Source: a bacterium (lineage in GTDB: Bacteria > Patescibacteriota > Minisyncoccia > Phycocordibacterales > UBA9973). From it: a DNA stretch of 64,000 nucleotides. The position numbers were made by a program, and so were the translations under genes. Under the pieces are notes generated by a model. It ran no database searches, was not told the origin of the DNA, and worked only from the letters and a program-made list of their open reading frames with translations. This document shows, piece by piece, positions 3,026-48,405 of the stretch; the first letter of the stretch is position 1; each line of letters starts with the position of its first letter. Where the stretch lies: contig JBBCGN010000001.1 of assembly GCA_037200905.1 (NCBI GenBank), positions 244,795 through 308,794 on the forward strand. The letters are read 5' to 3'.

Positions 3026-3306
3026 TTATTTGTGTTCCTTTAATTTGATAATATTACCTTCAATGAGTGCCTTAGAAACTTTTTTATAAGCAGACGTCAA
3101 AATGCGCTGAAAAGTACTCTGCGAGATGCCCATCTTCTTGGCAGCCTCGCTCTGATCGAGATTCTCGATATTCTTCAAAACGAAGAGCTTCAGACTCTTC
3201 GATCTCTATCTCGACGAGCTTCATGCCTTTCGGACAGCCTTCAGGCTTGAATTCCTTGTATGTAGGACAGAAGTCCACTTTTTTGTCGCATTTTCGGTCT
3301 CACCAT
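3026..3306 (-). pseudogene. DUF134 (UPF0251) family DNA-binding protein (two frame breaks, one in a T6/A6 run near 3279-3284)
   Basis: Reconstructed as [78 protein letters not shown]. Confidence 0.65.
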
Positions 3307-4141: not shown

Positions 4142-5185
4142 CTAGCATTTGACACCAGTAGTAGGGCTGAATATCGTAGTCGGAGTACAGCCTGCTTTCG
4201 ATGTTGTCGTAGTGGCAGTTGCTGATAGAGCGGCGCGCGATTTCGCGCCGAACACTCCGTCCGCTATCAGCCCTTTGCTCTTTTGAAAAGCGATGACTGC
4301 GGCTTTGGTCTTCGGGCCGAAACTGCCGTCCGCGGCTATGCCGAGGCTTTCTTGCAGCGCCGCCACGTCATCGCCTTTCGAGCCGAGCTGGAGTACGCGC
4401 GCGATAGATGACGCTTGCGCTACCTTGTTCGCGAGAGCTTCGGTGATGGAGCTTGGTAATGCGATATCGAGCGCCTGGGCCTGCACGAGGTCCTTGCGAT
4501 ACAGCGCGACCACGCTCTCGGCCAGGGCTTTTTCGTCCTTGGCGTCGTCGAGGATCTTTTCCAGATAATCGATTTTGTCCGCGACGGGAAAGATCCTCGT
4601 CAGCCTCGGAAAGGGATCAGTAGCCGTCTTGTCTTCGCGCACTTCGAAATGCAGGTGCGTGGCTCCGCCTGCGGCATTCCCCGTGTTTCCGACATAGCCG
4701 ATCAGGTCGCCCGTTTCGAGCACATCGCCTTCGCTGATATCGGCGATCTCGTCGAGATGCATATAGGCGAAAGTTTCGCCGCCCGGATTGGCCGTGTATA
4801 CGTAATTGCCCGCGCTGTCGCCCGTGCCGGTACTGAGCACCACGGCCTCGGTCGGAGACACGACCAATGCCCGTCGGGGCGCCATGATATCGAGTCCTTC
4901 ATGGGTGCGGCCGCCCGAGCGCGGATCGCCGAAGTTCCGGGTAAGGTTGTCCGGGGTCAGTCCGAAGAGTATCGGCAGCGGCAAGTCTTCCACCATATCG
5001 TCGTCGAGCTTGCTGATCTTGTTTTGCAAAGCACTATTGCGCCCGCGGATATGGCTCCAGTCGCCGCCGAAAGGACTCTCTCCTTCCCTCGTCTGGGCAG
5101 AAATGGTTCCGGGCGCGAGACCGGCACAGAGGAACAAGAGGACGGCAAAGCCGGTAATTCTAAAGATGCGTTGTTTTTTTATCAT
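4142..5185 (-). CDS. M23 family metallopeptidase with C-terminal peptidoglycan-binding domain
   Basis: HEGLDI..GNTGNAAGGATHLHFEV (M23). The C-terminus has GSKGDDVAALQESLG..DGSFGPKTKAAVIAFQ (PG_binding_1). Signal/TM segment at the N-terminus. Confidence 0.85.
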   Translation of the reverse strand: MIKKQRIFRITGFAVLLFLCAGLAPGTISAQTREGESPFGGDWSHIRGRNSALQNKISKLDDDMVEDLPLPILFGLTPDNLTRNFGDPRSGGRTHEGLDIMAPRRALVVSPTEAVVLSTGTGDSAGNYVYTANPGGETFAYMHLDEIADISEGDVLETGDLIGYVGNTGNAAGGATHLHFEVREDKTATDPFPRLTRIFPVADKIDYLEKILDDAKDEKALAESVVALYRKDLVQAQALDIALPSSITEALANKVAQASSIARVLQLGSKGDDVAALQESLGIAADGSFGPKTKAAVIAFQKSKGLIADGVFGAKSRAALSATATTTTSKAGCTPTTIFSPTTGVKC

Positions 5186-25095: not shown

Positions 25096-25623
25096 ATGAA
25101 ATTAGGAAGCGATGCAAAGGAACGGCTCAAGCAAATCGTCAGAAACGCGGTAGCGCTCGACCCTATGATTTCCCTTCGAGACCTGCAGGCAGTACTTCTC
25201 CAGAAAGGCATCAAGATCGGCAACCTCAATTCGCTGGCTAGGATCAGGAAAGAACTGACCGAAGATGCGATAGAGGAAATGGACCGGCCACAAGTGCTCA
25301 AGCGGTATGCGGATATGGAGGAACGGATGCGGGTGCTCCGAACGGAGCTATTCAAGATCATCTACCCTGACGGCAAGAGCGGTATGTATCCGAGCTACAG
25401 CGAACAGATCTCTGCGATGAAGATATTGATGGAAAGCGACATCAAGCTCTTCCGAGCCGGACTTGATATGGGTATCTACCGCAAGGACGTGGCTAAAGGA
25501 AAGAAGTATACGAAAGAGGAAGAGTTGGCTATGCGAAATAGGCCATTGAATCCTGAGCACAGAGAAAGTATGTTAAAGGCGTTCAAGAACTTTGGATTGA
25601 TTCCGAAGGATGCGGAGATATAA
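25096..25623 (+). CDS. Hypothetical protein, possible HTH partner/antitoxin of the downstream AbiEii-type gene
   Basis: 175-aa intact ORF. Its stop is 4 nt before the next start. The N-terminal ..ISLRDLQAVLLQKGIKIGNLNSLARIRKEL.. looks HTH-like. I see no resemblance to the AbiEi families. Confidence 0.35.
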   Translation: MKLGSDAKERLKQIVRNAVALDPMISLRDLQAVLLQKGIKIGNLNSLARIRKELTEDAIEEMDRPQVLKRYADMEERMRVLRTELFKIIYPDGKSGMYPSYSEQISAMKILMESDIKLFRAGLDMGIYRKDVAKGKKYTKEEELAMRNRPLNPEHRESMLKAFKNFGLIPKDAEI

Positions 25624-25627
25624 ATAT

Positions 25628-27049
25628 ATGATTTTAAAAGACGAGATTGATCAAAAATCAAAAGAGCAACAAATAACAACCGCTAACGTGCAGCGGGATT
25701 ATCTTTTTGGTTGGCTGTTAAATTATATTTTCACTCAGAGCGAATTGAAGGACTCACTTTTCCTTAAGGGCGGAAACGCACTGAGAAAAGCCTATTTTAT
25801 AAAAACTCGTTTTTCAACCGATCTGGATTTCGGTACTCCAAACGATATTGACCAAGAATTTTTGAAACAAGAGATTGAAAAAGCGTGTCAGTTCGTAAGC
25901 GAGAAAGCTGGTATCGCTTTTGTCCTTGAAAGGAACGACGTAAGGGAAAAGTTCAATTGGAACGAACCGCGCTGGAAAGTTTTTGAGGTAAAAATTTATT
26001 TTAAAGATTTCTATGGAAACTCTGATCACATCACCCTCAAAATCTCTCTCGATGTAACCAGATTTGATAAAACATATCTTGATATACAGGAACGCACGCT
26101 TCTGCATCCCTACTCAGATGTAGCCGAGGTGGCATGCCAAATAAAATGCATGCAACTGGAAGAAGTTTTGGCGACAAAGTTAAAATGCTTGCTACAACGC
26201 GACCATGCGCCAGACCTTTTTGATTTTATATACAGTATCTATTTGAATACAGACATACCGATCAATAAGGCAGACATTCGAAGAGTTTTCCTTCAGCGAA
26301 CAATTTTTGAACGCAGTCCTCTCGTCGCAAAGAATATTCTTCTCAAATTACCATTCGAATACATGAAGGCGGTATGGCTAAAAACGATTATCTGTACACA
26401 AGATATTCTCTTTGAGTTTGATGATGCCTTTGCAAAATTCACTTCTGAAATTGAGGCCTTGTTTGCGGAGGACACAGAGAATCCGTGGCATGACCGCTTT
26501 TTCTTTGAAGCGGACGTACGAAATAAAATTATGAAGGCCGGAAAGGATCAAACTCTTTTGCGTATCGTTTACCAAGGATCGGAAAGACTTGTTGAACCCT
26601 ATTCTTTGAAGTTTCAAGAGAAGAGTGACGGTGCTACAAAAGAGTACCTGTATGTTTGGAATAGAAACGGTGGAAGTAGTCCCAAGCCTGGAATACGAAT
26701 GTTTGTTCCTGAGAATCTGACATCTATAGAAAATACCGAAGAAAAATATGAGCCTCAGTACGAGATAGAATTATGCCGTGCAGGAGAATACCCTGAAGAC
26801 AGATATCTATACGATGTAAAAAAGAAGCGAGAGAAAGAACATAACAAACTGTATAAAGTAAAAGCGCCTCGACAATCTCGACCGACCAGAACGAGAGTGT
26901 CTTCTTTTGGCCCTACTTACGTTTACAAGTGCGGTAACTGCGGAAAACTATCATATCGCAAAACCATGGACGGAACCTTAAAGCCACACAAAAGCAAGAA
27001 TGGTTATTTGTGTTACGGATATGGAATCTACCAGACCACAAAATTTTAG
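25628..27049 (+). CDS. AbiEii/AbiGii-type nucleotidyltransferase (DUF1814) fused to a WYL-like domain and a C-terminal zinc ribbon
   Basis: VQRDYLFGWLLNYIF..LFLKGGNALRKAYF..RFSTDLDF is the DUF1814 signature. LLRIVYQGSERLVEPYSLKF..EYLYVWN..IRMFVPENLTSIE fits the WYL pattern. YKCGNCGK..HKSKNGYLCYGYG is CxxC..H..C. Confidence 0.75.
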   Translation: MILKDEIDQKSKEQQITTANVQRDYLFGWLLNYIFTQSELKDSLFLKGGNALRKAYFIKTRFSTDLDFGTPNDIDQEFLKQEIEKACQFVSEKAGIAFVLERNDVREKFNWNEPRWKVFEVKIYFKDFYGNSDHITLKISLDVTRFDKTYLDIQERTLLHPYSDVAEVACQIKCMQLEEVLATKLKCLLQRDHAPDLFDFIYSIYLNTDIPINKADIRRVFLQRTIFERSPLVAKNILLKLPFEYMKAVWLKTIICTQDILFEFDDAFAKFTSEIEALFAEDTENPWHDRFFFEADVRNKIMKAGKDQTLLRIVYQGSERLVEPYSLKFQEKSDGATKEYLYVWNRNGGSSPKPGIRMFVPENLTSIENTEEKYEPQYEIELCRAGEYPEDRYLYDVKKKREKEHNKLYKVKAPRQSRPTRTRVSSFGPTYVYKCGNCGKLSYRKTMDGTLKPHKSKNGYLCYGYGIYQTTKF

Positions 27050-27057
27050 ACTCCATT

Positions 27058-27130
27058 CGACCGTTTATAGCTTAACTTCCTTCTTTAAAATTGTGTAGTT
27101 GACTTGTTAGCTATATTGCTCCGTAAATCT
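27058..27130. repeat. Left copy of a ~72-bp direct repeat flanking the ABC/TrmB cassette
   Basis: cgaccgtttatagCTTAACTTCCTTCTTTAAAaTTGTGTAGTTGACTTgttagctatattGCTCCGTAaaTCTC, compared with 30477..30548. The 35-bp core has one mismatch. Confidence 0.85.
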
Positions 27131-27803
27131 CTTTACGCAATTGATTAAATTCCTCGGTAAATTTAATTTCTGGATTTCGTGGTCTTGGAAACGGAACGAT
27201 GAATTCTTTTGTAAAACCCGTCGGATGAAGAACCAATACTCGGTCAGCTAAAAATAGTGCTTCCTCAATATTGTGAGTAACAAAAATGACTGTCTTTTTG
27301 TGCGTGGTCCACACATCCAACAACCACTTCTGCATTTTATCTCTGGTATACGCGTCAAGCGCTCCGTATGGTTCGTCCATAAGAAGAACATCTGTGTTGT
27401 GAGCAAGTGAACGCGCAATAGCAACTCGCTGAACTTGTCCCCCAGATAGCTCGTCAGGGTACGCGTCCGCTTTGTCTTCCAGTTCTGCAAGCTTGAGGTG
27501 TTCATTTACCATTGCACAATTGTCTTTTGTATCACCTTTCAATCCGAAAGCTATATTTTCGGAAACTGTCAGCCATGGGAAGGCGGCATAATTTTGGAAA
27601 ACCATTCCAATGTTTCCAGACAAAGAGACCTCTCCTTGATACGGAATGAAATTCGCAAGAGCATGAAGCAAGCTACTTTTACCACTTCCAGATTTACCGA
27701 CAATCGCTACAAATTCTCCTTTGCTCACTTCGAAGGAAACATTCTCAAGTGCAGAGTGGTTCTTGTAACTTACATTTAGATTTTTGACAGTTATCTGGTT
27801 CAT
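27111..27803 (-). CDS. ABC transporter ATP-binding protein (nitrate/sulfonate/taurine NitT-type)
   Basis: GKSGSGKSSLL (Walker A), LSGGQVQRVAIARSL (signature), VLLMDEPYGALD (Walker B). Confidence 0.85.
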   Translation of the reverse strand: MNQITVKNLNVSYKNHSALENVSFEVSKGEFVAIVGKSGSGKSSLLHALANFIPYQGEVSLSGNIGMVFQNYAAFPWLTVSENIAFGLKGDTKDNCAMVNEHLKLAELEDKADAYPDELSGGQVQRVAIARSLAHNTDVLLMDEPYGALDAYTRDKMQKWLLDVWTTHKKTVIFVTHNIEEALFLADRVLVLHPTGFTKEFIVPFPRPRNPEIKFTEEFNQLRKEIYGAI

Positions 27804-28555
27804 TTTTGTGAAAGAGTTAGCCATGGAAAGATTCGGCGAGTAGCCAACACAAAGAGTTGATCGGTAACAGCGCCGAGCGTCCCTAGAACAACTAATGCCG
27901 CTATCATTTCATCAATCCGGTACGAAAGAGATGATATTGAGATTCGATATCCAATACCGCTTGAGGCTCCTGACAGTTCAGACACGAAGACCATTACAAA
28001 CCCGATTGCGATAGCTGTTCGAATACCGGAAATAATGAAAGGAAGACTTGCAGGAAAAATTACTTCCCGAAACATCTTGAAACGAGACAAAGCAAAAAGT
28101 CTTGCGCTCCACAAGAACGTCTGCGGTATTTGTTGGGCGCCGATATATGCACCAATCCATACTGGGAAAAAGACAGCGAATGCTATGGAAAATATCTTTG
28201 CGCCATCATCAATACCAAACCAAACAATAATGAGTGGGATAATGGCTACAGGAGGCAACGGCCTAAGTATCTGAATGATAGGGTTTATTGCCTTTGCTAT
28301 GGACTTTATACGGCCTGTAACTAAACCGGTACAAATACCGATAACTGAACCGAGAGTCAGCCCGACTACAAGTCTCCAAAGACTGTCTCTGAAATCATAA
28401 AAGACAGTACCGGATATAATCATTTCCCAAAGAGCTATGGCAACTTTTGATGGTGGCGGAAATAAAGCAGGATTAACAAAACCACTACGAGATACTAATT
28501 CCCACAGTATACATACTGAAATAATTGGAAGAATAAACCATAGGAATTTTTTCAT
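27800..28555 (-). CDS. ABC transporter permease (NitT/TauT family)
   Basis: 251 aa, six TM segments, BPD_transp_1-like ..FREVIFPASLPFIISGIRTAIAIGF.. Confidence 0.8.
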   Translation of the reverse strand: MKKFLWFILPIISVCILWELVSRSGFVNPALFPPPSKVAIALWEMIISGTVFYDFRDSLWRLVVGLTLGSVIGICTGLVTGRIKSIAKAINPIIQILRPLPPVAIIPLIIVWFGIDDGAKIFSIAFAVFFPVWIGAYIGAQQIPQTFLWSARLFALSRFKMFREVIFPASLPFIISGIRTAIAIGFVMVFVSELSGASSGIGYRISISSLSYRIDEMIAALVVLGTLGAVTDQLFVLATRRIFPWLTLSQK

Positions 28556-28571
28556 GGGTCATGAGATTGCT

Positions 28572-29591
28572 TTAAATACCAACTGCTCCCGAAGAAATCT
28601 TTTTGAGCGGAGCACTGTAGATAACATCCTGGAAATTTGGAATTACAGTATCTTTAGTTACTTTACCGCTATCTTTAGCCCACTGTGCTTCTCGATTCAA
28701 GTATTCGAGCAATTGAGGAGTAAGAGCGATGCGGAAATCAAAACTACCCCAGATTCCATCGACTGTTTCCTTGTCGAGTTTTGTGTATTTCATCACTACA
28801 GCTTTTGCTTCCTCTGGATTGTTCTTGGTAAACTTTTCTGCTTCAACAAGTCCTTTCAATAGTTTTTCAAGTGTTGCAGGATTTTCTTTAACAGACTCTT
28901 TTGCTTCTATGACATAAAGTTCTGAATAAATACTCGCGTCAGTGAAAGTGATGGATTTATCACCAAGCTGCTTTTCAGCTATGTACGCGAATGGATCAAA
29001 TACTGCAATAGCATCTACACTTCCACTTATTAGAGCAGCCGGCATATCCTTTGGCGCCTGACTCACGATTTCAACTTGGTCTTTGGAAATACCGAGCTTG
29101 TTCAAAAATTCATAGGTAAAGAATTCCGGCCCACCACCAATAGACGTAGCTATCTTTCGCTTCTTTGCTTTGAAGTATTGATCAGAAGTCTCGAGTCCTG
29201 CTTCTTTGCGCGCAACAACTCGTACTTCATTCTGAGTCTTGCCAACTACTTGCGCAGGCACAACAAATTTATTTCCCTGAAGGGAGGCAAGAGTTACTGG
29301 AACATCACCAGAAATTGAAAAATCCAAAGATCCTCCGAGAAATGCTTCGAGGGCAAACTTACCAGCAGTAAATTCCTTGAGCTCAACATTAAGTCCCTCT
29401 TTTTCAAAAAAGCCTTTGTCTTTTGCCACCATGACCAAGGCCATAGCAGGAGAGGTTTGAATTCCCACTGTTACATGTTCCAGTTCTTTGGGCTGCTTTA
29501 ATCTGGCATGCCAAGCAAATAACCCACCTATTAAGGCAAGGATGATAATGGTCCACAAAATATTTTTTGATGTTTTTGACATATACACCAC
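28572..29591 (-). CDS. ABC transporter substrate-binding protein (NMT1/SsuA-like; probable start 29582)
   Basis: N-terminal anchor, then ..VTVGIQTSPAMALVMVAKDKGFFEKEGLNVELKEFTAGKFALEAFLGGSLDF.. Confidence 0.75.
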   Translation of the reverse strand: MVYMSKTSKNILWTIIILALIGGLFAWHARLKQPKELEHVTVGIQTSPAMALVMVAKDKGFFEKEGLNVELKEFTAGKFALEAFLGGSLDFSISGDVPVTLASLQGNKFVVPAQVVGKTQNEVRVVARKEAGLETSDQYFKAKKRKIATSIGGGPEFFTYEFLNKLGISKDQVEIVSQAPKDMPAALISGSVDAIAVFDPFAYIAEKQLGDKSITFTDASIYSELYVIEAKESVKENPATLEKLLKGLVEAEKFTKNNPEEAKAVVMKYTKLDKETVDGIWGSFDFRIALTPQLLEYLNREAQWAKDSGKVTKDTVIPNFQDVIYSAPLKKISSGAVGI

Positions 29592-29670
29592 AATCTACAG
29601 TTTTGGTAAAGTATTGTAAACACTGTTGTACATTATTGACAACATAAACCGACTTTGATAGCATGAGGAT

Positions 29671-30489
29671 ATGATTGAAGACATACTCAAAAAGCTTGAT
29701 TTGCGCGACGAGGAAATAAAGGCCTTCCTTTTCCTTCTGGAGAACGGACCTCAAACGGCTGGCAATCTAGCTAAAAAGACCGGCCTATCCCGCCCTTCCC
29801 TATATGGGTTCATGCGCAAACTCCAAAAAATGGAGCTAGTTATTGAATCTCAGAAAAACGGCATCAAGACTTTCACAGCAAGTTCAAAAGAAAAAGTTTC
29901 TAGCCTTTTCGATGAGAAAATACAAGAACTAGAGCAAGGCAAGCTCTCAATCGAAAAAGTCTACAGCGAAATCCTCAAAACCGGAGCGACTATCAGTCCG
30001 AAGTTTCAATTATTTGAAGGCAAAGATGGAATGAAGCTCGTACTCAAAGACATGCTTATGTATCGAGACATTGAGACGAAATCATATTGGCCTATAAAAG
30101 CCATGATTGAAATTCTCTCTGAAGATTTTTTCAAAACATTAAATAAGGAGCGTATCCAGCGAAAACTTACGACTCGAGCAATCTGGCCCCAGAACCAAGT
30201 CGTGGATATAAAAAAATACCCTTATCTTGGGACTGGAGAGAAATTTCTCCGAGAAATCCGTGTAGCACCGAAAGATATTGGTTTCTCTATGGGTTACTGG
30301 ATATACGGAAATAAAGTTGCTTTTATTTCTTCCAAGAAAGAAGCTTTCGGATTTATTATCGAGAGTAAGGAGCTCGTTGAAATGCTCTCTTCTCAGTTTG
30401 AAGTCATGTGGAAACTTTCACGTCCCATAAAAGCAAAAGAGAGTGATTCCGCAGAATTTTTAAAAGAACTAAAAAACGACCGTTCGTAA
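29671..30489 (+). CDS. TrmB family transcriptional regulator
   Basis: LDLRDEEIKAFLFLLENGPQTAGNLAKKTGLSRPSLYGFMRKLQKMELV is a TrmB-type wHTH. Transcribed divergently from the ABC operon. Confidence 0.75.
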   Translation: MIEDILKKLDLRDEEIKAFLFLLENGPQTAGNLAKKTGLSRPSLYGFMRKLQKMELVIESQKNGIKTFTASSKEKVSSLFDEKIQELEQGKLSIEKVYSEILKTGATISPKFQLFEGKDGMKLVLKDMLMYRDIETKSYWPIKAMIEILSEDFFKTLNKERIQRKLTTRAIWPQNQVVDIKKYPYLGTGEKFLREIRVAPKDIGFSMGYWIYGNKVAFISSKKEAFGFIIESKELVEMLSSQFEVMWKLSRPIKAKESDSAEFLKELKNDRS

Positions 30490-30548
30490 CTTAACTTCCT
30501 TCTTTAAATTTGTGTAGTTGACTTATATCTTATTCTGCTCCGTATCTC
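30477..30548. repeat. Right copy of the ~72-bp direct repeat
   Basis: cgaccgttcgtaaCTTAACTTCCTTCTTTAAAtTTGTGTAGTTGACTTatatcttattctGCTCCGTATCTC. It overlaps the TrmB stop codon and precedes the recombinase gene. Confidence 0.85.
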
Positions 30549-30592
30549 GTTATTCACTAGACTTCGCACGTTGTTCCGGTATGTTCGTGTGT

Positions 30593-31924
30593 ATGGAACA
30601 AATAGCACCATATGGAGCTCAAATAGGCATACCTCCAGTATTGCAGACAGAGCCAGTCAGATACTGTTTATATGCCCGTAAATCGAGCGAGGCAGAAGAA
30701 AAGCAAGCACTCTCAATTGATTCTCAAGTAAAGGAGATGCTCGATATCGCTCAAAAAGATAATCTGAACGTTACCGATATGTACCGCGAATCTCACTCGG
30801 CAAAAGATTGCGGACAGAGACCAGTTTTCAATAAATTACTTCTTGATATCCGTGAGGGTAAATTCGATGGCGTCCTCGTTTGGCATCCAGACCGCCTCTC
30901 TCGAAACGCTGGTGACCTCGGCGCTATAGTCGATTTGCTTGACCAGAAAAAATTGATTGAGATACGGACATATAGCCAGCGCTTTACCAATAATCCAAAT
31001 GAGAAATTCCTTTTGATGATTCTCGGATCACAAGCAAAACTCGAAAATGACAACAAGAGCATCAATGTGAAGCGTGGATTACGAACTCGAGTTGAAAGTG
31101 GTCTATGGCCCAGCGTTGCTCCTACCGGATATCTTAATCACCCTGATCGAACAATGAAATGCCATGTGATTGTTGATCCATTACGATCGCATGTAATACG
31201 ACTCATTTTTGAGAAAGCGGCCTATGAGAAAATGAGTATCCGAAAACTATTCCGCTGGCTCAAAGAGGACGTCCGATTTACTACGAGACATGGAAAACCA
31301 CTCAGTCTAAGCAATATCCAGCTCATTCTTCGTAATAATTTCTATATGGGACTGATCGAATATCCACGAGGGTCAAGCAAGTGGTACCCTGGCAAACACG
31401 AACGCATAATTAGTGAAGAACTTTTCAAAAAGGTTCAGGAAAAATTGGATGCAAGTAAAAATGGTGAACAACGCACTAAAAAAGAGTTCGCGTTTACCCG
31501 TCTTATGAAATGCGGTATGTGTAAATCCGGAGTGACTGCTGAAGAAAAGTTCAAGAACTTAATTGATGGAAGTGTTGCAAAGTACATTTATTATGGCTGT
31601 ACAAGGTTCAATGATAAAAATTGCAAGAATACTTACCTACGCGAAGATAATCTAATTGAGCAATTGCTCGAGATTGTAGATCGAATTGATATCAATAACG
31701 TAGGCATCAAAAGTAAACTTGAAAAAGAAATCGAACGTTTTGGAGAATTTAGAAGCAAGGTTTTGGGAACCACTGAACAAGAGAAAATCGTACAGACAAA
31801 AATTGATGTACGAAACTATATGAAATACCTACTCCGAGAAGGAACGATTCAAGAAAAGCGAGATTTGATGCAGTCGTTCACGAGTAAGCTCATTTTGATC
31901 AACAAAAGAGTTGTGCTCGAGTAA
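30593..31924 (+). CDS. Large serine recombinase (resolvase domain, recombinase domain, zinc ribbon)
   Basis: YCLYARKSSEAEEKQALSIDSQ (catalytic Ser region), VWHPDRLSRNAGD, ..CGMCKSGVTAEE..YYGCTRFNDKNCKN. Start taken as MEQIAPYG; an alternative start is 30581. Confidence 0.85.
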   Translation: MEQIAPYGAQIGIPPVLQTEPVRYCLYARKSSEAEEKQALSIDSQVKEMLDIAQKDNLNVTDMYRESHSAKDCGQRPVFNKLLLDIREGKFDGVLVWHPDRLSRNAGDLGAIVDLLDQKKLIEIRTYSQRFTNNPNEKFLLMILGSQAKLENDNKSINVKRGLRTRVESGLWPSVAPTGYLNHPDRTMKCHVIVDPLRSHVIRLIFEKAAYEKMSIRKLFRWLKEDVRFTTRHGKPLSLSNIQLILRNNFYMGLIEYPRGSSKWYPGKHERIISEELFKKVQEKLDASKNGEQRTKKEFAFTRLMKCGMCKSGVTAEEKFKNLIDGSVAKYIYYGCTRFNDKNCKNTYLREDNLIEQLLEIVDRIDINNVGIKSKLEKEIERFGEFRSKVLGTTEQEKIVQTKIDVRNYMKYLLREGTIQEKRDLMQSFTSKLILINKRVVLE

Positions 31925-31928
31925 AAAA

Positions 31929-32768
31929 CTATTCTGATTTTACTTCTCCAGATTCAAGCTTAGTAACGATTTCATTCATAGTGTAATGCACAAATTGTTT
32001 TCCAAGCTCAGTTAATTCATATTGTTTATCATCATCAAAAGCAGAGGTAGCATAGCGCACACTACCCGCAGGCTTCGATGTTTTTTTGCTGGGACGTATT
32101 ATTACATTTCCTTGATAATCCCTTTCTTTATGCTGTCTTATTACATGCCCTGTACTTAAATCATGTACGAGTAACTTAAATAAATCTGCTTCGGCCGAAT
32201 CTTCTCGAACAGCTTCACCGTGTATTTGATCCCAAATTTCTTGCCTTGTATAACCTGGATTATTAAATACAACTCTTACAACAGCAAAGTGAGCTTCTGA
32301 ATATATGTCAATCCATGAGACAAACATGCGAACTACATCATCTGAGCAAATTTTAGTAGAAGCCGAATTTGCAAGTAAATTTCTTATCAACTTTCTCTTC
32401 TCTTCGCTTTCTGCCGCAGACCAATCTCGGAAACACTTTTTCACAATCTTTAAATACTCAGGACTTTGCAACCTTTCTCTAATTTTTTCATCGGTTTGAT
32501 CTACACGTGCCATAACTTCCATGATAGTTATGGCAATCTCTTTTATTTCATCCTCTTGTAGTTTAAGCCATGTACCAAATATGTTATTCAAATTTTCTTG
32601 CTCTTTTTCAGACCATGATCCTCCTATGCCACCAATGGCTCCCCCAATAACCGGAATAGCACTTAAACAAGCAAGTGCAAAGCGAGCAGCTTTTGGTCCT
32701 GAACCTGATTCTAAAGCTTCATCAAGTTGTTTTCTTAAGTCACTTTTTTCTTCTTTGTCATCTTTCAT
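31929..32768 (-). CDS. Hypothetical protein with an N-terminal glycine-zipper hydrophobic segment
   Basis: ..AARFALACLSAIPVIGGAIGGIGGSW.. followed by a helical region. It lies 16 nt downstream of the HEPN-like gene on the same strand. Confidence 0.4.
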   Translation of the reverse strand: MKDDKEEKSDLRKQLDEALESGSGPKAARFALACLSAIPVIGGAIGGIGGSWSEKEQENLNNIFGTWLKLQEDEIKEIAITIMEVMARVDQTDEKIRERLQSPEYLKIVKKCFRDWSAAESEEKRKLIRNLLANSASTKICSDDVVRMFVSWIDIYSEAHFAVVRVVFNNPGYTRQEIWDQIHGEAVREDSAEADLFKLLVHDLSTGHVIRQHKERDYQGNVIIRPSKKTSKPAGSVRYATSAFDDDKQYELTELGKQFVHYTMNEIVTKLESGEVKSE

Positions 32769-32784
32769 ATTAATTTACTTTAAA

Positions 32785-33576
32785 CTACTTAGAGCTTTTA
32801 TCTGCTAATTTAGCAAGTAAACTTACGAAAGCAATGAACTCTAGAGCCATTTCTGGATCATCTTTTATAATTTTATGTGCACGAGGATTTCTTAAGCCAG
32901 CGACTGCACCCGAGAACATCATCATGAATCCTTTTTGCTCATCAATATCTGAAGTATCTGCAAGAGTATTAAATTTCAATACAGGACTCTTGGAACTAAA
33001 TACAAACTCCATAAGTGCTATTCCGTCTTTATCATCAATCCCACTATTCATTCTCACAAGAGCATTTAATGCTTTAACTGCATCTTCAATCGCGTTGGAA
33101 TAATGCCCATCTTTAAAAAGATTTCCAACTGCTCTTTCAATTGCAGGATGAAGCTCAAGACCCTCATATGCTTTAAGTGTTTTCCCAGATGAAGTTTGCC
33201 CAGCATCCCCAAGTTCTTCTAAAAAGATTGCTTTTATACCCTCAAGTTGTTGCCTAGATTCTGTTACTGATTCACTGACGCTTTGTTTAATTTCTCCAAG
33301 AGTTATATCTGGCCACCAACTACCTGGATTAAGGCTAGTAACACCATGGCGGTATCTTTCATACTCAACCGTATTAGTTCCAAAAATAGAAGCCAGAGTA
33401 GCCTCAAGGGTTTTTTCTAATGTAAGAACTGTGGGATCGCCATATTTAGTGATCGAATTTATATCTAGATTTTCTAGATCTTTGATTCTTCTGTCGATCT
33501 TAGGAATAGCTGCTTGCATCTGTTGAAATGACAAATTAGCTTCTACAGGTTCTGATTTCTTAGGTTTTTGGGACAT
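32785..33576 (-). CDS. TIGR02391 (Hypoth_Ymh)-like protein with an Rx4H HEPN-type motif
   Basis: ELHPAIERAVGNLFKDGHYSNAIEDAVKALNALVR..GFMMMFSGAVAGLRNPRAHK.. The N-terminal ~130 aa look like coiled coil. Confidence 0.65.
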   Translation of the reverse strand: MSQKPKKSEPVEANLSFQQMQAAIPKIDRRIKDLENLDINSITKYGDPTVLTLEKTLEATLASIFGTNTVEYERYRHGVTSLNPGSWWPDITLGEIKQSVSESVTESRQQLEGIKAIFLEELGDAGQTSSGKTLKAYEGLELHPAIERAVGNLFKDGHYSNAIEDAVKALNALVRMNSGIDDKDGIALMEFVFSSKSPVLKFNTLADTSDIDEQKGFMMMFSGAVAGLRNPRAHKIIKDDPEMALEFIAFVSLLAKLADKSSK

Positions 33577-33652
33577 ATATAAATTATACTCTTAATCTTA
33601 ATTTTTAAACGAACAGACCACTTTAGGTCACTGGGTACGAAAAACTAAACTG

Positions 33653-33723
33653 CTGGGAGACTAGGACTCGAACCTAGATAAACAGGACCAGAACCTGTTG
33701 TCCTACCATTAGACGATCTCCCA
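33653..33723 (-). tRNA. tRNA-Gln (anticodon CTG)
   Basis: TGGGAGA TC GTCT AATGGTA GGAC A ACAGG TTCTGGT CCTGT TTAT CTAGG TTCGAGT CCTAG TCTCCCA G. Cloverleaf drawn by hand. No encoded CCA. Confidence 0.85.
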
Positions 33724-33726
33724 ATG

Positions 33727-33963
33727 CTACATCTTCGATCTTAACTCCTTCTTTCCTTTTGCAGTCTTGTAGTACCTTTCTTTACGGAATGCCTCATATT
33801 TATCATCATACGGTTCGAAATATAAAATCTCAAATGGAACACGAGATTTGGTAGATTTTACTTTGCCCGAATTGTGATAATTCAAACGATTTTCTAAAGA
33901 TTCAGTACAACCAATATATTGGTTATCGTCCTTTTTGCTTTTTAAGACATACACGTAATGCAT
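33727..33963 (-). CDS. Small GIY-YIG nuclease family protein
   Basis: MHYVYVLKSKKDDNQYIGCTESLENRLNYHNSGK..R.PFEILYFE..KYEAFRKERYYK. Its stop codon is 3 nt from tRNA-Gln position 1. Confidence 0.8.
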   Translation of the reverse strand: MHYVYVLKSKKDDNQYIGCTESLENRLNYHNSGKVKSTKSRVPFEILYFEPYDDKYEAFRKERYYKTAKGKKELRSKM

Positions 33964-33964
33964 A

Positions 33965-34032
33965 CTGTTGTCCTACATTAGCCTCGCCCGTAGGCTGGAG
34001 CCTTCGGGCTACGGCCGAGGGACGATCTCCCA
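33965..34032 (-). pseudogene. Decayed copy of the tRNA-Gln 5' half, interrupted by a 39-nt GC-rich hairpin
   Basis: Minus strand reads TGGGAGATCGTC[CCTCGGCCGTAGCCCGAAGGCTCCAGCCTACGGGCGAGG]CTAATGTAGGACAACAG, against the intact TGGGAGATCGTCTAATGGTAGGACAACAGG. Confidence 0.8.
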
Positions 34033-34116
34033 ATACCCGTATACATTACTAGAAAACCGGACTTTTTTCAACTTTTGCCATTTTTGACTTTCGGGAATTA
34101 AAGGTATAATAAGCCA

Positions 34117-43558: not shown

Positions 43559-43994
43559 TTATTTATTTTCCTTCAGCTTCGGCCAGCCCGCGATGTCCAC
43601 GTCGTGGATCGGATCGGCAAGGAGCATCTCCTGCATGTCGGAATACTTGGTGATGCCCGGCACGATAAAAGATTTTTTCTCCGCCTGAGTTTCCGGTACG
43701 AGCAGTGCCGGAGCTGTTGGGGATTCCGAGATAAGATTATCAGCTTGGAGCGATGCGATAAGATCTGTTACAGATTTTTCTATCGTTTCGATAGACGCAT
43801 CGTAGCGAGCAGCCAGAGCTTGCGTGATTTGCCCGAGAGAATGCCCGGCTTTGAGATATTCCCAGACCAGGCTGCCTGTCTCGTTCATGCTGTAATACGT
43901 GCCGTTCTGTAGATCGATGATGATGGTCTCGCCGTCGAGAGTCTCGCTGATGGCGCGGGAATGCGTTTATCGCATACGTTTTATCTGAAGACAT
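43559..43994 (-). pseudogene. PqqD-family (RRE-type) protein (one frame break near 43945)
   Basis: MSSDKTYAINAFP, then in another frame AISETLDGETIIIDLQNGTYYSMNETGSLVWEYLKAGHSLGQITQALAARY..SVTDLIASLQADNLI..LLADPIHDVDIAGWP. Confidence 0.7.
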
Positions 43995-44105
43995 ACCGCT
44001 ATATTATACAAAAAATACCGAAAAGCAAAGGCACGCAGCAATATGACTAGGATTGTTACCCATCAGATGTGGAGAATACATTTCCACAGATCTCGTCGGC
44101 GCGAA

Positions 44106-44785
44106 CTAGCGAGCGCCGGTTGAACCGTTGATTTCAGTGGAGGCTGCCGGCTCGATGACGCTGAAGGTGCTCTGTTCGCTCGTGCCGAGAAACGGCACCG
44201 CTCTTCGCGATGGCCTGCACGTCCCAGGCGAAGTCGCACAAATACGGCGGCTTGCACGGACCGGTATATATGCCGCTCACTGCCACCTCTGTGGCAGTAC
44301 CCGCGTCTTTCGTGACGATAGGCTGGCTTGATTTCATGGCCGGCGTCCCGTTTCTGCCCCTGCATCAATTGCCAGAACCCTGAGGCGGTACGTGACCGGT
44401 TCTTTCGGCTTCGGGACAAGAGGCGTCCATCTGAAGGCGATAGCCTTGAGCGCCTCATCGGCTGCCAGTTTTTTCTTGTCTTCGGGAAGAAGATTATGAG
44501 CATTTTCCTGCTGCTCATTCTTTTCACTGATTTTAATATCAGAATCTATGACGGCGTTGAATTGGCCTGCCGTCGGCTTGTCGCCCTTGGCTGAATCCCG
44601 TCCAGCCGGAATATCTCCGTCTTGGAATTTATCTTTCAGTTCGGTTCTCTGGCTTTCAGCGGGCTTGTCCCCTTTTTCAAATAACTCTTCAATGCCTCGC
44701 GCTTGACGACGGCTTATGTTCCGGCACCAACTAAAATTACGATTAATACAATAAAGATAGGCGAAAATCCTTTTTGATTTTTCAT
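44106..44785 (-). pseudogene. Hypothetical protein with a pilin-like N-terminal anchor (three or more frame breaks)
   Basis: My translation gives MKNQKGFSPIFIVLIVILVGAGT / ..GIEELFEKGDKPAESQRTELKDKF.. / ..KSSQPIVTKDAGTATEVAVSGIYTGPCKPPYLCDFAWDVQA.. / ..AVPFLGTSEQSTFSVIEPAASTEINGSTGAR. Confidence 0.4.
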
Positions 44786-44941
44786 ATCCAGATTATACCA
44801 CTTTTCTCTCTGCGCGACTTAGTGGACGATGTTAGAACTGCTATTAGGAATTATAATAAGCATATTTATATCCCTGATTTAACATCTTTTATTTTATCTT
44901 GATTCTTTCTAAATTCAACACCCTGCATACCATTATCACTA

Positions 44942-45253
44942 TTACCTCCCTTCTGCTATGGGATTAGGAGGAATTAAGCCTACAATATTATCCCAACTCG
45001 TTTTTAAATTTTGAATAGTTACTCCACTTTGAGGTTTGAAAATTATAGCAATTTGTCCATTGTTTTCAGTAACAATTATATCTGAAGACAAGCTTGTCCG
45101 TATTAAATCGATATTTGCTCCTTGGGCTTGAAGAAAAATAGCTTGGGTTCCTTGTAATAAATCGTAAAACCAGAACCTATTGGGTCGGTAACCTTTTTTA
45201 TATAATTCGAAAACAGCATCGCGGACTTGCGTTTCAAGCTGTTCTCGATACAA
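44942..45253 (-). CDS. Hypothetical protein (TTG start, or continuation of 45256..45615 through a frame break)
   Basis: AT-rich. The frame stays open about 14 codons upstream of the TTG. No motif recognised. Confidence 0.35.
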   Translation of the reverse strand: MYREQLETQVRDAVFELYKKGYRPNRFWFYDLLQGTQAIFLQAQGANIDLIRTSLSSDIIVTENNGQIAIIFKPQSGVTIQNLKTSWDNIVGLIPPNPIAEGR

Positions 45254-45255
45254 GC

Positions 45256-45615
45256 CTAAGTTATACTCATCTTCTGTCGCAAGCGGATTATCAGCTCTCT
45301 TTGTTCAAGCTCCTTTTTATTTTTTATAACTTCTCCATTGCGTATTCGAATATTTTGCGCGATAAACTTCGCTTCTTCCGGAGACAAAACTCTTTCACTA
45401 ATGGCATAGAAAATTAAGTCGAAGTAATCGGGATAATCTCTAATTAACGCCTGAAGTTCTTTGCTGTCTTTAACATTTTGTAAGTAGTTTTCCTTGTTTT
45501 TTTGCAATGAGGGTCCTGTTATATCGTGAAAATATAACCCTAACTTCTCGTCGAGGCCATCAAGATTTAATGGAATATCCTGAGAACTATTACTGAACGA
45601 AGCTTCAATGCTCAT
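45256..45615 (-). CDS. Hypothetical protein
   Basis: Start taken as MSIEASFSNSS at 45615, 3 nt below the tRNA-Asp 3' end. The longer track ORF reads into the tRNA. Confidence 0.35.
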   Translation of the reverse strand: MSIEASFSNSSQDIPLNLDGLDEKLGLYFHDITGPSLQKNKENYLQNVKDSKELQALIRDYPDYFDLIFYAISERVLSPEEAKFIAQNIRIRNGEVIKNKKELEQRELIIRLRQKMSIT

Positions 45616-45618
45616 ATG

Positions 45619-45692
45619 CGCGACCGAGCGGATTTGAACCGCCAACCTCCCGCGTGACAGGCGGGTGCTCTAACCAGTTGAGCTACGATCGC
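45619..45692 (-). tRNA. tRNA-Asp (anticodon GTC)
   Basis: GCGATCG TA GCTC AACTGGTTA GAGC A CCCGC CTGTCAC GCGGG AGGTT GGCGG TTCAAAT CCGCT CGGTCGC G. Confidence 0.85.
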
Positions 45693-45739
45693 ATTTTTTT
45701 CTTGCTACCATACCTTTCTCAATTATACCTGTCCGCCTC

Positions 45740-45782
45740 GGCGGGTGCTCGCTACAGTCTAATTGAGTTGAGCTACGAACGC
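45740..45782 (-). pseudogene. Decayed copy of the tRNA-Asp 5' half with a D-loop insertion
   Basis: GCGTTCGTAGCTCAACTCAATTAGA[CTGTAGCGA]GCACCCGCC, against the intact GCGATCGTAGCTCAACTGGTTAGAGCACCCGCC. Homology stops at the anticodon loop. Confidence 0.7.
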
Positions 45783-45801
45783 ATTTTTCCTCTAACGAGG
45801 G

Positions 45802-45874
45802 TGTCGGCGACAGGGATCGAACCTGTGACCTGAGGCTTATGAGTCCTCCGCTCTACCGACTGAGCTACGCCGAC
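45802..45874 (-). tRNA. tRNA with CAT anticodon (Met type)
   Basis: GTCGGCG TA GCTC AGTCGGTA GAGC G GAGGA CTCATAA GCCTC AGGTC ACAGG TTCGATC CCTGT CGCCGAC A. One A/G mismatch at the base of the anticodon stem. Confidence 0.8.
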
Positions 45875-46080
45875 ATGAAGCAAACTGCTTTGCTTCATGT
45901 CGAGGACGATACCGCGAGGTGAAGCATAAGGACGATGCGAGGCTGAAGGCCGAGCCGTCCTTTCAAGCAACTTATCTAAAACGAGCAAACTGCTTTGCTT
46001 CATGTCCGATGGCGATACCACCGAGTATAGCAAGAGGGCGATGCGAGGCGGTAGCCGAGCAGCCCTTTCAAGCAATTTAC
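45875..46080. repeat. Two tandem ~100-105-nt units, each starting (plus strand) with an 8-10-bp hairpin
   Basis: Unit A is 45875-45976 and unit B is 45983-46080. Shared blocks are gcaaactgctttgcttcatgtc, cgatacc, gcgatgcgaggc, gccgagc and cctttcaagcaa. Confidence 0.8.
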
Positions 46081-46129
46081 TACTTACTACTTCGGCGTGA
46101 GAGACACTGGCATGTCACTTGCCGACTTG

Positions 46130-46200
46130 TTGCGGGGTCCGGAATTGAACCGGAGTCTCAAGGTTATGAGCCTTGCGAGATACCTCTTCTCTACCCCGCT
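46130..46200 (-). tRNA. tRNA with CAT anticodon (Met or Ile2 type; A1/A72 mismatch)
   Basis: AGCGGGG TA GAGA AGAGGTA TCTC G CAAGG CTCATAA CCTTG AGAC TCCGG TTCAATT CCGGA CCCCGCA A. Confidence 0.7.
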
Positions 46201-46233
46201 ATATATTTAATCATAACAAGGAGATTTCGGTAT

Positions 46234-46295
46234 GGCTCATAACCTTGGTTATTCGCGCTTATCGTCCTTTCGGAGATACCTTTCTCTACCTCGCT
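46234..46295 (-). pseudogene. Decayed copy of the CAT-tRNA 5' half with an insertion and an inverted anticodon hairpin
   Basis: AGCGAGGTAGAGAAAGGTATCTC[CGAAAGGACGATAAGCGCGAATAAC]CAAGGTTATGAGCC. The loop TTATGAG is the exact complement of CTCATAA. Confidence 0.65.
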
Positions 46296-46337
46296 ATAAA
46301 GCGTTCAAAATAGATTTTTACGCTTTGCCTATTCTAC

Positions 46338-46935
46338 TCATATTTGGCAGAAAAGCAAGCCAAATGAGGCTATATATACCCGAAAATCCCTGAAAATGTC
46401 CTCGTACAGGGCCGTCACCCGCTTGGCCTCGTGAGCGGAGAGATGGAACTGCGGTGCCCTCGTGGGCGACGCGGTTGCGCACCGCATGGGCCTCCCAGGC
46501 GGCGGTCAGATGCGGAAAGGTCTCGCGGTCGGCTTCCCTTGAGCTTGTCGCCGAGCGTTTCGCCCTTGAAGCCCATCTGATGAAGCAGATCTTCGAGCAT
46601 GGAATCAGCCTCGATAATGGCGATCTTCCAGTCCGCGGGCGTCGGAGAAAAGACATGGTCGAGGACCTGGTTCCAGCGGGGATTTTTCGAGCGTGCGCCC
46701 CTCTTGGTCTTCTTGGCCTCCTCGGCGTGGTGGTGGGCATACTCGGCGAGCTCATGCTGCAGAAATTTTTTCTCCTTCGCCCGATCTCAAAGATCCTGAC
46801 CACGGAATACGAGATCAGGAACAGGAAAAAGATGGCGAAAAATGGAAAATACGTCGCGAGGATATTCCCAAGCACCACGAAGTGCGGAAAAGCGATATGC
46901 GGCAGGGCGATGTGAGGGAGGGTGAAAGAAGGCAT
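46338..46935 (-). pseudogene. Membrane-anchored hypothetical protein with a C-terminal Rx4H (DUF4145/HEPN-like) motif (frame breaks; 3' end uncertain)
   Basis: MPSFTLPHIALPHIAFPHFVVLGNILATYFPFFAIFFLFLISY.., ..MLEDLLHQMGFKGETLGDKLK.., ..FPHLTAAWEAHAVRNRVAHEG.. Confidence 0.4.
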
Positions 46936-46974
46936 ATGGATATGATGACCCCTAGATTATAGCACGCCCTCCGG

Positions 46975-48405
46975 CTAGCGGATCGCTTCGAATTTCTTGC
47001 CGGCCTCGAAACAAGGCATCCTCGTCCCAGTGCGAGGCCATGAACTGGATGGAAAGCGGCAGACCCTCGTCGGTCTTGCCGGAAGGGCACCGCGAGCGAC
47101 GGCACGCCCGGGAGAGGTTTGCCGGCGCGGAGAAAATGTCGGAGAGATACATGGAAACAGGATCGTTCACCTTTTCTCCGATCTTGAATGCCGGGGTCGG
47201 CGTGGTAGGAGTGGCGATCAGGGAGACGCCTTCAAAGGCCTTCTTGAGCTCGGCGCGGATCCTTTCGCGCACCTGCACGGCCTTGTTGTATAGGCATCAT
47301 AGTATCCGTGCGAAAGCACGTACGTGCCGAGACAGTATGCGCCTGCGGGCTTCCTTGCCGAAGCCCTTTCCCCCTGCTCTTCTTGTAGACTTCCATCAGG
47401 TTCGCGCTTTCGCGGTCGGTGTAGCCGTAGCGGATGCCGTCGAAGCGGGACAGGTTGGTGGAAACTTCCGCCGGCATGATGATGTAATACGCCGCGAGGG
47501 AATATCTGCACTCTGGAAGCTCGACGTCGACGATCTCATAACCCGCATTTTTGAGCTTTTCGACAGACTGTTTGAAATTTTCCATGACGACGGGATCCAC
47601 GCCATCGGTAAAGAGGTGCCACGGCACGCCGATCTTTTTCATATTCTTCGCATCTCCTTTTTTGACGCGCTTATCCTCTGGGACAGAAGTAACTGTCGTG
47701 CTCGTCATATTTTGAGAGCGCTTTGAAAATTATTTCCGTATCATTCACGGTTTTCCCCGAAGGGCGATACCTGGTCGAGAGAGTTTCCCATGGGGATGAT
47801 GCCCTGGCGTGAAAGGGCGCCGTAGGTGGGCTTGAGCCGACCAGGCCGCAGAAAGACGATGGTTCGCGCACCGAGCCGCAGGTCTCCGTTACCGAGAGCC
47901 ACGAGGGCCATGTCGGCCGCCACGGCGATGGCCGAGCCGCCCGAAGATCCGCCGGGTACGCGGGAAGTATCATGCGGATTGCGAGAAACGCCATAGGCGC
48001 TGTTTTCCGTCGAGGAACCCATGGCGAACTCGTCCATGTTCGTACGGCCCAAAAATACCGCTCCCGGCCGCTTTCAATTCCCTGGATGACCGTGGCATCA
48101 TAGCTGGCAGATAGTTTTCCAAGATTTTTGACGCTGCGGAAGCGATGCGTCCTTCGATCAGGATATTATCCTTATAGCGAACGGTATGCCAGTGAGAAGC
48201 GTGGCCGAGCCGTCGGAAAATTTCTGCTGCGCTACTTCAGCTTGTGCCAGCACGTCGCCATAGACTTCGAGGTAGGCATGGAGCTCGGTATTTTTCTCTG
48301 CAATAACCCCAAGATATGCTTCCGCTAATTCTTTGCAGAGTGCAATCGCCCGCCTTGAGCGCTGCATGAGCTTTTTTCGATTGTCAGATGTTCCAGATCG
48401 ATCAT
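46975..48405 (-). pseudogene. gatA: Glu/Asp-tRNA amidotransferase subunit A (five or more frame breaks)
   Basis: [36 protein letters not shown] in ORF 47741..48052. N-terminal, middle and C-terminal pieces lie in ORFs 48158, 47232 and 46952. The reconstructed end is ..DALFEAGKKFEAIR. Confidence 0.8.

Follow-up and report, generated by a model that had tools for sequence, protein, structure and literature searches.

A candidate structured RNA element, tandemly duplicated in front of a tRNA-Met gene in a Patescibacteria genome

In a tRNA operon of a CPR (Patescibacteria) genome, the gene for elongator tRNA-Met is directly preceded by two tandem, non-coding units of about 100 nt each. The available evidence supports a picture in which each unit is composed of three predicted hairpins on the tRNA strand and in which the last hairpin of the array is physically fused to the 5' end of the tRNA. 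One further copy exists at the same position in a distant relative (locus L009; the loci of related genomes carry L numbers in the following), and the three copies suggest that base pairs have been kept by compensatory changes across genomes. Our best explanation is a lineage-restricted structured spacer RNA that is co-transcribed with the tRNAs, removed during their processing, and was acquired and duplicated in a recombination hot spot; we propose it tentatively, granting it somewhat less than an even chance of being right. The element is undescribed, extremely rare and very narrowly distributed, and we present it as a candidate and not as a discovery.

The tandem units and their operon

The window, that is, the whole stretch of 64,000 nucleotides analyzed here, belongs to a cellular genome and not to a phage; it is part of the chromosome of a Paceibacteria-like CPR bacterium. 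Its genes include those for SecD/SecF, a release factor, TruB, a histidine kinase and an M48 protease, and the possibility of a phage origin was discarded after megablast and blastn searches against 50,697 phage records, which yielded matches to the tRNAs only. Read from 5' to 3' on the minus strand, which carries all features of the locus, the order is leader, tRNA-iMet, a 50-nt spacer, unit B, a junction, unit A, tRNA-Met, a partial tRNA-Asp and tRNA-Asp. The first tRNA of the operon (46130..46200) is an initiator-like tRNA-Met(CAU) with a 1:72 mismatch, found by ARAGORN and by Rfam (60 bits, with 1:72 flagged as non-standard). The elongator-type tRNA-Met(CAU) follows at 45802..45874 (Rfam, 68.8 bits; the ARAGORN bounds, 45799-45875, are slightly wider than those of Rfam), and the final tRNA is tRNA-Asp(GUC) at 45619..45692 (ARAGORN and Rfam). 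The repeat thereby lies in a spacer within the series of conserved DUF gene, tRNA-iMet, tRNA-Met and tRNA-Asp. A 44-nt core of the elongator tRNA-Met is identical in 13 MAGs by exact pattern match, and the whole tRNA is identical in nearly all of them; these MAGs, labelled Paceibacteria, Nomurabacteria or ‘Saccharibacteria’, have the gene order gatC-gatA-DUF protein-tRNA-iMet-tRNA-Met-tRNA-Asp in common.

No terminator-like site (a G+C-rich hairpin with a T run) was found in a scan of 45400-46500, and the only sigma-70-like promoter candidate of that interval lies at 45693-45722, outside the units. Since no promoter or terminator separates them from the tRNAs, the units would be transcribed as part of the tRNA precursor. 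We also considered an internal promoter, AAAGCAGT, which resembles the promoter regions of divergently oriented loci, and judged this resemblance to be coincidental.

Tandem Repeats Finder delimits the repeat to 45879-46079, with a period of 105, 1.9 copies, 82% matches and a score of 279, and a repeat search yields three in-register blocks between the units (23 nt at 100%, 26 nt at 88% and 48 nt at 73%). This bears out the starting observation of two units with common conserved blocks. Neither conserved block turns up anywhere else in the 64-kb window, and the number of chance occurrences expected is 0; overall, the two units are 81% identical, and a spacing of 105 versus 106 shows that they differ by indels. 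Unit A, the tRNA-adjacent copy, extends over 45875..45972 and is supported by Tandem Repeats Finder, by its score of 107 bits with our covariance model R1, and by the consensus structure and its pair counts. Its hairpins are P2 (45929-45961), P3 (45891-45926) and a terminal hairpin (45875-45898). Unit B, the upstream copy at 45983..46077, rests on the same repeat call, a score of 96 bits and the consensus structure; it comprises P2 (46035-46066), P3 (45996-46032) and just a short terminal hairpin (45983-45995), its 3' arm being cut off by the duplication junction. From sequence reading and alignment, this junction is the 10-nt stretch GTTTTAGATA (45973..45982), which is similar to the sequence immediately upstream of unit B (…GTAGTAA).

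We regard chance similarity and assembly artefact, taken together, as effectively refuted. Although an artefact could be suspected where neighboring genes are frameshifted, with gatA split into three ORFs, the copies differ at 19% of their positions, and an independent MAG from another study has the element at the same site. The frameshifts themselves, which affect gatA as well as the conserved DUF gene that precedes the tRNAs (46318-48400), reflect either pseudogenes or indel errors of the assembly. Given these frameshifts, small or single-base indel errors inside the units are possible.

The units fell into none of the following known classes. For Rfam membership, we required a covariance-model score that reached the gathering threshold or, failing that, E<=10; in a search of 45500-46450 against Rfam 15 at E<=10, only the three tRNAs were matched, and the units were not. 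An origin as tRNA or pseudo-tRNA was rejected, as neither ARAGORN nor Rfam detected one and as local alignments of all three units to six tRNAs, two pseudo-tRNAs and the spacer gave p>=0.085; the same applies to a direct copy of the leader/tRNA junction (p=0.13-0.53). Likewise, a small protein-coding ORF was dismissed: the only ORF at the units (45773..46075), which had been called not credible from the outset, traverses a tRNA, the copies differ by indels, and there is no ORF spanning the unit in L009.

A homologue in a distant relative and the predicted structure

The single copy in L009 (5088-5186) scores 101 bits with R1, a value that has to be read in light of L009 being itself among the three source sequences of this model. 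Independently of any model, blastn aligns L009 5013-5184 with positions 45801-45969 of the window at 84%. Its position is identical to that in the window, as it follows the conserved post-iMet spacer motif and borders immediately on tRNA-Met +1, and its identity is 75% to unit A and 72% to unit B. For comparison, gatA of the window and of L009 share 65.6% DNA identity overall and 35% at third codon positions, which is essentially saturated, and the only sequences of L009 that blastn aligns with the window are the tRNAs, gatA and the unit. Because a neutral, vertically inherited spacer of 100 nt could not stay so similar, purifying selection, lateral transfer more recent than the split of the genomes, or both would have been at work; as far as these sequences tell, either the structure is selected or a lateral transfer came first and selection after it. 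The search for homologues elsewhere, proposed in the original prediction as a check, was thus answered by one case, at the same position and with P2 kept through four double substitutions, considerably more than the one compensatory change noted in that prediction. A distant relative with a copy at the same spot and with compensating changes argues for a real structured element.

The RNAalifold consensus of the three copies consists of three successive hairpins. In P2, 4 of 11 pairs have changed on both sides, with zero one-sided changes and one broken cell across the three sequences; P3 is mostly invariant. The terminal hairpin contributes one double change in the consensus structure, and a longer version of it, described below, two further compensated pairs that we read from the sequences. 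In total, 93% of the cells of the consensus structure are paired, and 6 pairs show double changes. Column shuffles give 2.3±1.2, with 0 of 500 as high as 6, and controls with slid partners give 0-1; as the three sequences come from two genomes and two of them are paralogous, these covariation statistics are weak, and they are suggestive of a secondary structure conserved by compensatory changes rather than conclusive. The long-range helix that had been noted at the start, with its change from A-U to G-C, is present in both units, as AAGGACG...CGTCCTT in unit A (45929-45963) and as AGGGC...GCCCT in unit B. Three sequence elements are invariant in all copies: the loop GGUAUCG, the 5' segment UGCUUGAA and UCGACA. 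A Y-shaped fold with a closing stem, as obtained from single-sequence folds of units A and B, was abandoned because it is not conserved in L009.

The original prediction further held that the hairpin with the UAUCG loop forms better on the minus strand. This agrees with our counts for P3, where 38 of 42 cells pair on the tRNA strand, 9 of them as G-U (A·C on the other strand), and 30 of 42 on the other strand, a comparison that is biased since it was on this strand that the structure had been predicted. For P2, pairing is as good on one strand as on the other. The z-scores of folding are of modest size, with -2.9 and -3.1 for the tRNA strand and -4.25 and -1.7 for the opposite one, and as the energies are similarly good on both strands, energy alone cannot decide between them. 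In our proposal, the unit would fold on the tRNA strand and selection would act on the folded RNA.

The equal pairing of P2 would also suit another explanation, in which the palindromes are DNA-level sites for a recombinase, a single-stranded-DNA-hairpin transposase or a dimeric regulator, and in which pairing is selected in DNA hairpins. The 10+4+10 palindrome at the end of unit A is perfect, in line with this idea, and the 18-nt hairpin AAGCAAAGCAGTTTGCTT, which is part of both units, recurs exactly, and inverted relative to the tRNAs, in a different, tRNA-Asp-repeat-bounded element of L010 and L014. We nevertheless deem this explanation very improbable, given that dispersed copies were not found in the window and the fetched loci, that terminal inverted repeats or a target-site duplication are missing, that P3 would lose its G-U pairs if it formed on the other strand, and that the palindrome is imperfect in L009. 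Scans of viral contigs returned 0 matches at first and then a single one, a chance match in coding DNA. For similar reasons, we rejected a dispersed palindromic repeat or miniature mobile element: R1 detects two neighboring copies in the 64 kb of the window, a single copy in L009 and nothing in the remaining fetched loci, and neither terminal inverted repeats nor a target-site duplication were detected at the units.

The palindrome itself was known from the beginning as a 10-bp hairpin, ATGAAGCAAA-CTGC-TTTGCTTCAT, that abuts tRNA-Met, and it is indeed present at 45875-45898. In the repeat search, however, it is part of a perfect inverted repeat of 14 bp with a 4-nt loop (45871..45902, with arms at 45871-45884 and 45889-45902) that runs across the leader/tRNA junction. 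Being 14 bp long and not 10, the repeat takes in nucleotides +1 to +4 of tRNA-Met (45871-45874). The equivalent arrangement at the junction in L009 is paired at 13 of 14 positions. When folded jointly with the tRNA, the window sequence prefers the junction hairpin by ~3 kcal/mol, while the L009 sequence does not. In these models, nucleotides +1 to +4 of the tRNA can be tied up by the terminal hairpin in the window as well as in L009.

A variable slot in a probable recombination hot spot

Relatives of the locus were sought via the neighboring DUF, M48 and HAD proteins; the HAD gene proved not to be syntenic, and many contigs end exactly at the tRNA cluster. Among the ~18 distinct related genomes inspected, the unit is found only in the window and in L009. 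Nine relatives have the same co-oriented iMet-Met arrangement without a unit, with spacers that range from 26 nt (L040) to 76 nt (L013) or reach ~218 nt (L012) and ~325 nt (L011, L042/43), compared to 148 nt in L009 and 253 nt in the window. In the remaining relatives, where tRNA-iMet lies on the opposite strand, tRNA-Met comes with a promoter-like sequence of its own. A search with the covariance model R1 produced no copies beyond A, B and L009 in the 64-kb window or in any fetched locus, and a metagenome scan with one three-anchor DNA pattern gave 11 matches, all by chance and none of them unit-like or beside a tRNA-Met. The notion of a small RNA family is consequently not borne out, as there are three copies in two genomes only, to which neither R1 nor Rfam adds any. 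The processing signal and the decoy that the original prediction offered as further options may be regarded as guesses.

What else occupies the spacer differs between lineages. In L011 and L042/L043, GIY-YIG ORFs fill the iMet-Met slot, and in L012, it contains three tandem 56-nt pseudo-5' copies of tRNA-Met (~2137-2330) directly upstream of the gene. With different insertions in different lineages at the same site, the unit can be said to occupy a hypervariable slot. A conserved feature of this spacer is a short element after tRNA-iMet (46092..46125), whose motif CGGCAAGTGACATGCC (46109-46124) forms a GGCA/UGCC hairpin with a 7-nt loop, located between UCGGC (46121-46125) and GCCGA (46092-46096). 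The motif is found in eight genomes (the window, L003, L008, L009, L012, L013, L030 and L046), always with the same loop, and RNAalifold predicts four conserved pairs for the element, one of them compensatory. This looks like an ancestral spacer, after which the units were inserted.

Partial tRNA copies are a recurrent theme in the vicinity. In the window, a partial copy of the gene's own 5' part lies ahead of tRNA-iMet, and another ahead of tRNA-Asp. According to the repeat search, the operon leader (46205..46298) contains a partial 5' copy of tRNA-iMet, in which 46282-46298 matches 46187-46203, and an inverted copy of the iMet anticodon arm, in which 46234-46247 is the perfect 14-nt reverse complement of 46159-46172. 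The partial tRNA-Asp (45730..45790; repeat search and sequence) reaches up to the 5' strand of the anticodon stem; it carries an insert of ~15 nt in the D-loop and lies ~40 nt upstream of the true tRNA-Asp. Pseudo-iMet leaders are also seen in other genomes: those of L007, L011, L013 and L046 are homologous and have a conserved ATAGCGCGAATAACC insert, and a second type with a hairpin insert in the D-loop is found in L008, L030, L036 and L042. In L012, pseudo-5' copies furthermore precede tRNA-Asp and tRNA-Thr, all with an altered D-loop (GCTGTTTTGG/GCTGTTTTAG).

Some of these copies come with mobile genes. A tRNA-Gln cassette in the window (33652-34036, minus strand) comprises a partial 5' copy of tRNA-Gln with a 39-nt G+C-rich hairpin inserted in the D-loop, a GIY-YIG ORF (33727-33963; 78 aa, catalytic domain only, Pfam E=7e-16) and the intact tRNA-Gln (33652-33723). 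LAGLIDADG ORFs of 220 aa lie between tRNA-Met and tRNA-Asp in L004 (231-893) and L010 (2167-2829), each preceded by a fragment of the tRNA-Asp anticodon arm. L010 also has a group I intron in tRNA-iMet (3069-3288; Rfam, 76 bits), and intron-like inserts of ~230 nt are found in the tRNA-Asp of L010 (~1935-2140) and L014 (~465-680). The recurring architecture of partial tRNA copy, endonuclease ORF and intact tRNA explains the pseudo-tRNA pieces as insertion footprints.

Adjoining tRNA-Gln, we also noticed a block of low G+C content (~25600-34000; 37-41% versus ~52-56% elsewhere), in which an AbiEii-type toxin is encoded at 25610-27049 and a large serine recombinase at 30518-31924; the block is probably an integrated element. 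In another low-G+C stretch (~43900-45250), situated downstream of the tRNA operon, the public annotation calls no gene, and the ORFs have no Pfam match.

A different type of insert, a conserved structured element of ~190 nt, is located 3' of tRNA-Asp in L009 (~4720-4905), L010 (1700-1898) and L014 (150-430). A 21-nt direct repeat of the tRNA-Asp 3' end (TCAAGTCCGGTCGATCGCGCA) marks its borders, and it has no match in Rfam. In L010 and L014, this is the element that shares the 18-nt hairpin with the units of the window; the equivalent hairpin in L009 has the same loop and a different stem. Homology of whole units to it was rejected, since only the 18-nt hairpin is in common and the R1 scores are insignificant.

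Given this neighborhood, the main rival to our proposal is a selfish or neutral relic, which we consider possible yet rather unlikely. Here, the units would be the footprint of a mobile cassette (an endonuclease gene, an intron or a miniature integrative element) or of fold-back or template-switch repair at the 5' boundary of the tRNA; their hairpins would be by-products of inverted duplication, and they would persist because they are harmless or because they disrupt the target site of an endonuclease. This is close to the suggestion, in the original prediction, of scars of repeated insertions, and the context fits it well. GIY-YIG ORFs sit in the same slot in L011 and L042, the cassettes of this region have the very architecture described above, the terminal hairpin repeats the leader/tRNA junction in inverted form, another inverted copy, that of the iMet anticodon arm, lies 300 nt away, and the distribution is patchy; moreover, there is a published precedent for endonuclease-driven tandem amplification (PMC13096335). 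The part that fails concerns the units themselves, which have no significant or detectable similarity to tRNAs, pseudo-tRNAs, the spacer, GIY-YIG leaders, LAGLIDADG or intron regions. A blastn-short comparison of the units with the LAGLIDADG and intron cassette regions found none, and a derivation from a GIY-YIG cassette leader was rejected, as all that was found is one 11-mer shared between unit A and the leader of L042, which neither unit B nor L009 contains. Furthermore, neutral sequence should not hold 72-75% identity when silent sites are saturated, and four compensatory double substitutions in a stem of 6-8 bp are not expected under neutrality. The relic thus accounts for the context, but not for the conservation, the compensatory changes or the missing similarity to any cassette.

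Possible roles and relation to known systems

Coming back to the structured spacer RNA that we favor, its elements are unequally secured. The original prediction of structured RNA elements co-transcribed with the tRNAs stands in so far as the units appear structured, are non-coding and have a homologue in L009 that keeps the main helix; co-transcription is what we infer from the operon. Upon transcription, a structured spacer fragment would be freed by the RNase P cut at tRNA-Met +1 and by trimming of the iMet 3' end. Its role would most likely be in cis, in the folding and processing of the precursor, where the terminal hairpin, by pairing with tRNA +1 to +4, is predicted to compete with the acceptor stem. 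A cis role appears the most economical function. Against it stands that sequestration is thermodynamically preferred only in the window and not in L009 and that most relatives do not have the element; as ~16 relatives process the same tRNA without the unit, any cis role is dispensable. Entry into the slot and patchy spread probably proceeded by recombination between the near-identical flanking tRNA genes, and such a lateral exchange would explain why two genomes that are not close share the unit while most lack it. The duplication may have occurred via break-repair or slippage, in the same process that would explain why partial duplications and homing-endonuclease cassettes accumulate in this cluster.

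Instead of acting in cis, the excised units might represent independent small RNA genes whose products work in trans, perhaps by antisense regulation or by binding a protein, comparable to the stable non-tRNA RNAs of the phage T4 tRNA cluster. The loops and junctions conserved in the three copies (UGCUUGAA, GGUAUCG, UCGACA), the covarying stems and the retention of both copies after 19% divergence would be in keeping with such a role. We still find it unlikely, as no target, partner protein, own promoter or terminator has been identified and as the element is very rare and not in Rfam. About equally doubtful, and more speculative, is a reading of the iMet-Met spacer as a cassette slot, in which RNAs and endonuclease genes are swapped laterally among CPR bacteria. 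The flanking tRNA genes, identical across family-level divergence, could serve as universal homology arms, and the unit would be a selected RNA cassette with a gating or a protective effect: it may gate the maturation of tRNA-Met by RNase P through pairing with +1 to +4, or it may split the target of a GIY-YIG endonuclease and thereby protect the locus. Such an arms race could also involve the conserved pseudo-tRNA leaders nearby.

Several known systems resemble the locus in part. The tRNA cluster of phages T4 and T6 gives rise to stable non-tRNA RNAs (species 1 and 2, rnaC/rnaD), which are structured, have no known function and derive from the same precursor as the tRNAs. Both there and here, structured RNAs lie among tRNA genes, and a GIY-YIG nuclease gene is found in the tRNA cluster. 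Here, however, the genome is that of a cellular CPR bacterium, there is no sequence or structural similarity, transcription and processing of the units are predictions, and the small GIY-YIG ORFs, with 78-90 aa, consist of the catalytic domain only. The GIY-YIG endonuclease of T-even phages, SegB, is encoded within the tRNA cluster and cuts inside tRNA genes (PMC2330249; PMC13096335), and it drives the recombination-dependent tandem amplification of tRNA-containing segments in that cluster (PMC13096335).

Bacterial genomes offer further parallels. Distal to tyrT of E. coli, repeats of 178 bp represent a tandem spacer duplication beside a tRNA gene, include partial tRNA copies and are attributed to unequal recombination. 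The pseudo-5' copies of tRNA-iMet, tRNA-Asp and tRNA-Gln described here, together with the 56-nt triplet in L012, are of this kind; the 105-nt units, by contrast, contain no detectable tRNA fragment and are conserved across genomes with compensatory changes. Leader and spacer hairpins of tRNA precursors, the substrates of RNase P and 3' processing, likewise lie between co-oriented tRNAs and end exactly at tRNA +1, and the adjacent spacers of this operon also have small hairpins of conserved shape. The units differ from them in being far larger (~100 nt, three hairpins), conserved in sequence, present in 2 of ~18 genomes, and able, as predicted, to pair with the first four nucleotides of the tRNA. 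Finally, REP/BIME palindromic repeats and miniature mobile elements are similarly intergenic, palindromic, non-coding and patchy, but in the window and the fetched loci the units are not dispersed, with just two neighboring copies in 64 kb, and do not have the terminal inverted repeats or target-site duplications of such elements.

If they are functional, the units would be an undescribed structured RNA of the CPR/Patescibacteria, a group whose non-coding RNAs have hardly been charted. Beyond the units themselves, the locus shows homing endonucleases, introns and break-repair duplications to be actively at work in the tRNA operons of these reduced genomes, and it would offer a tractable setting for asking whether spacer RNAs modulate the maturation of tRNAs or the immunity against endonucleases.
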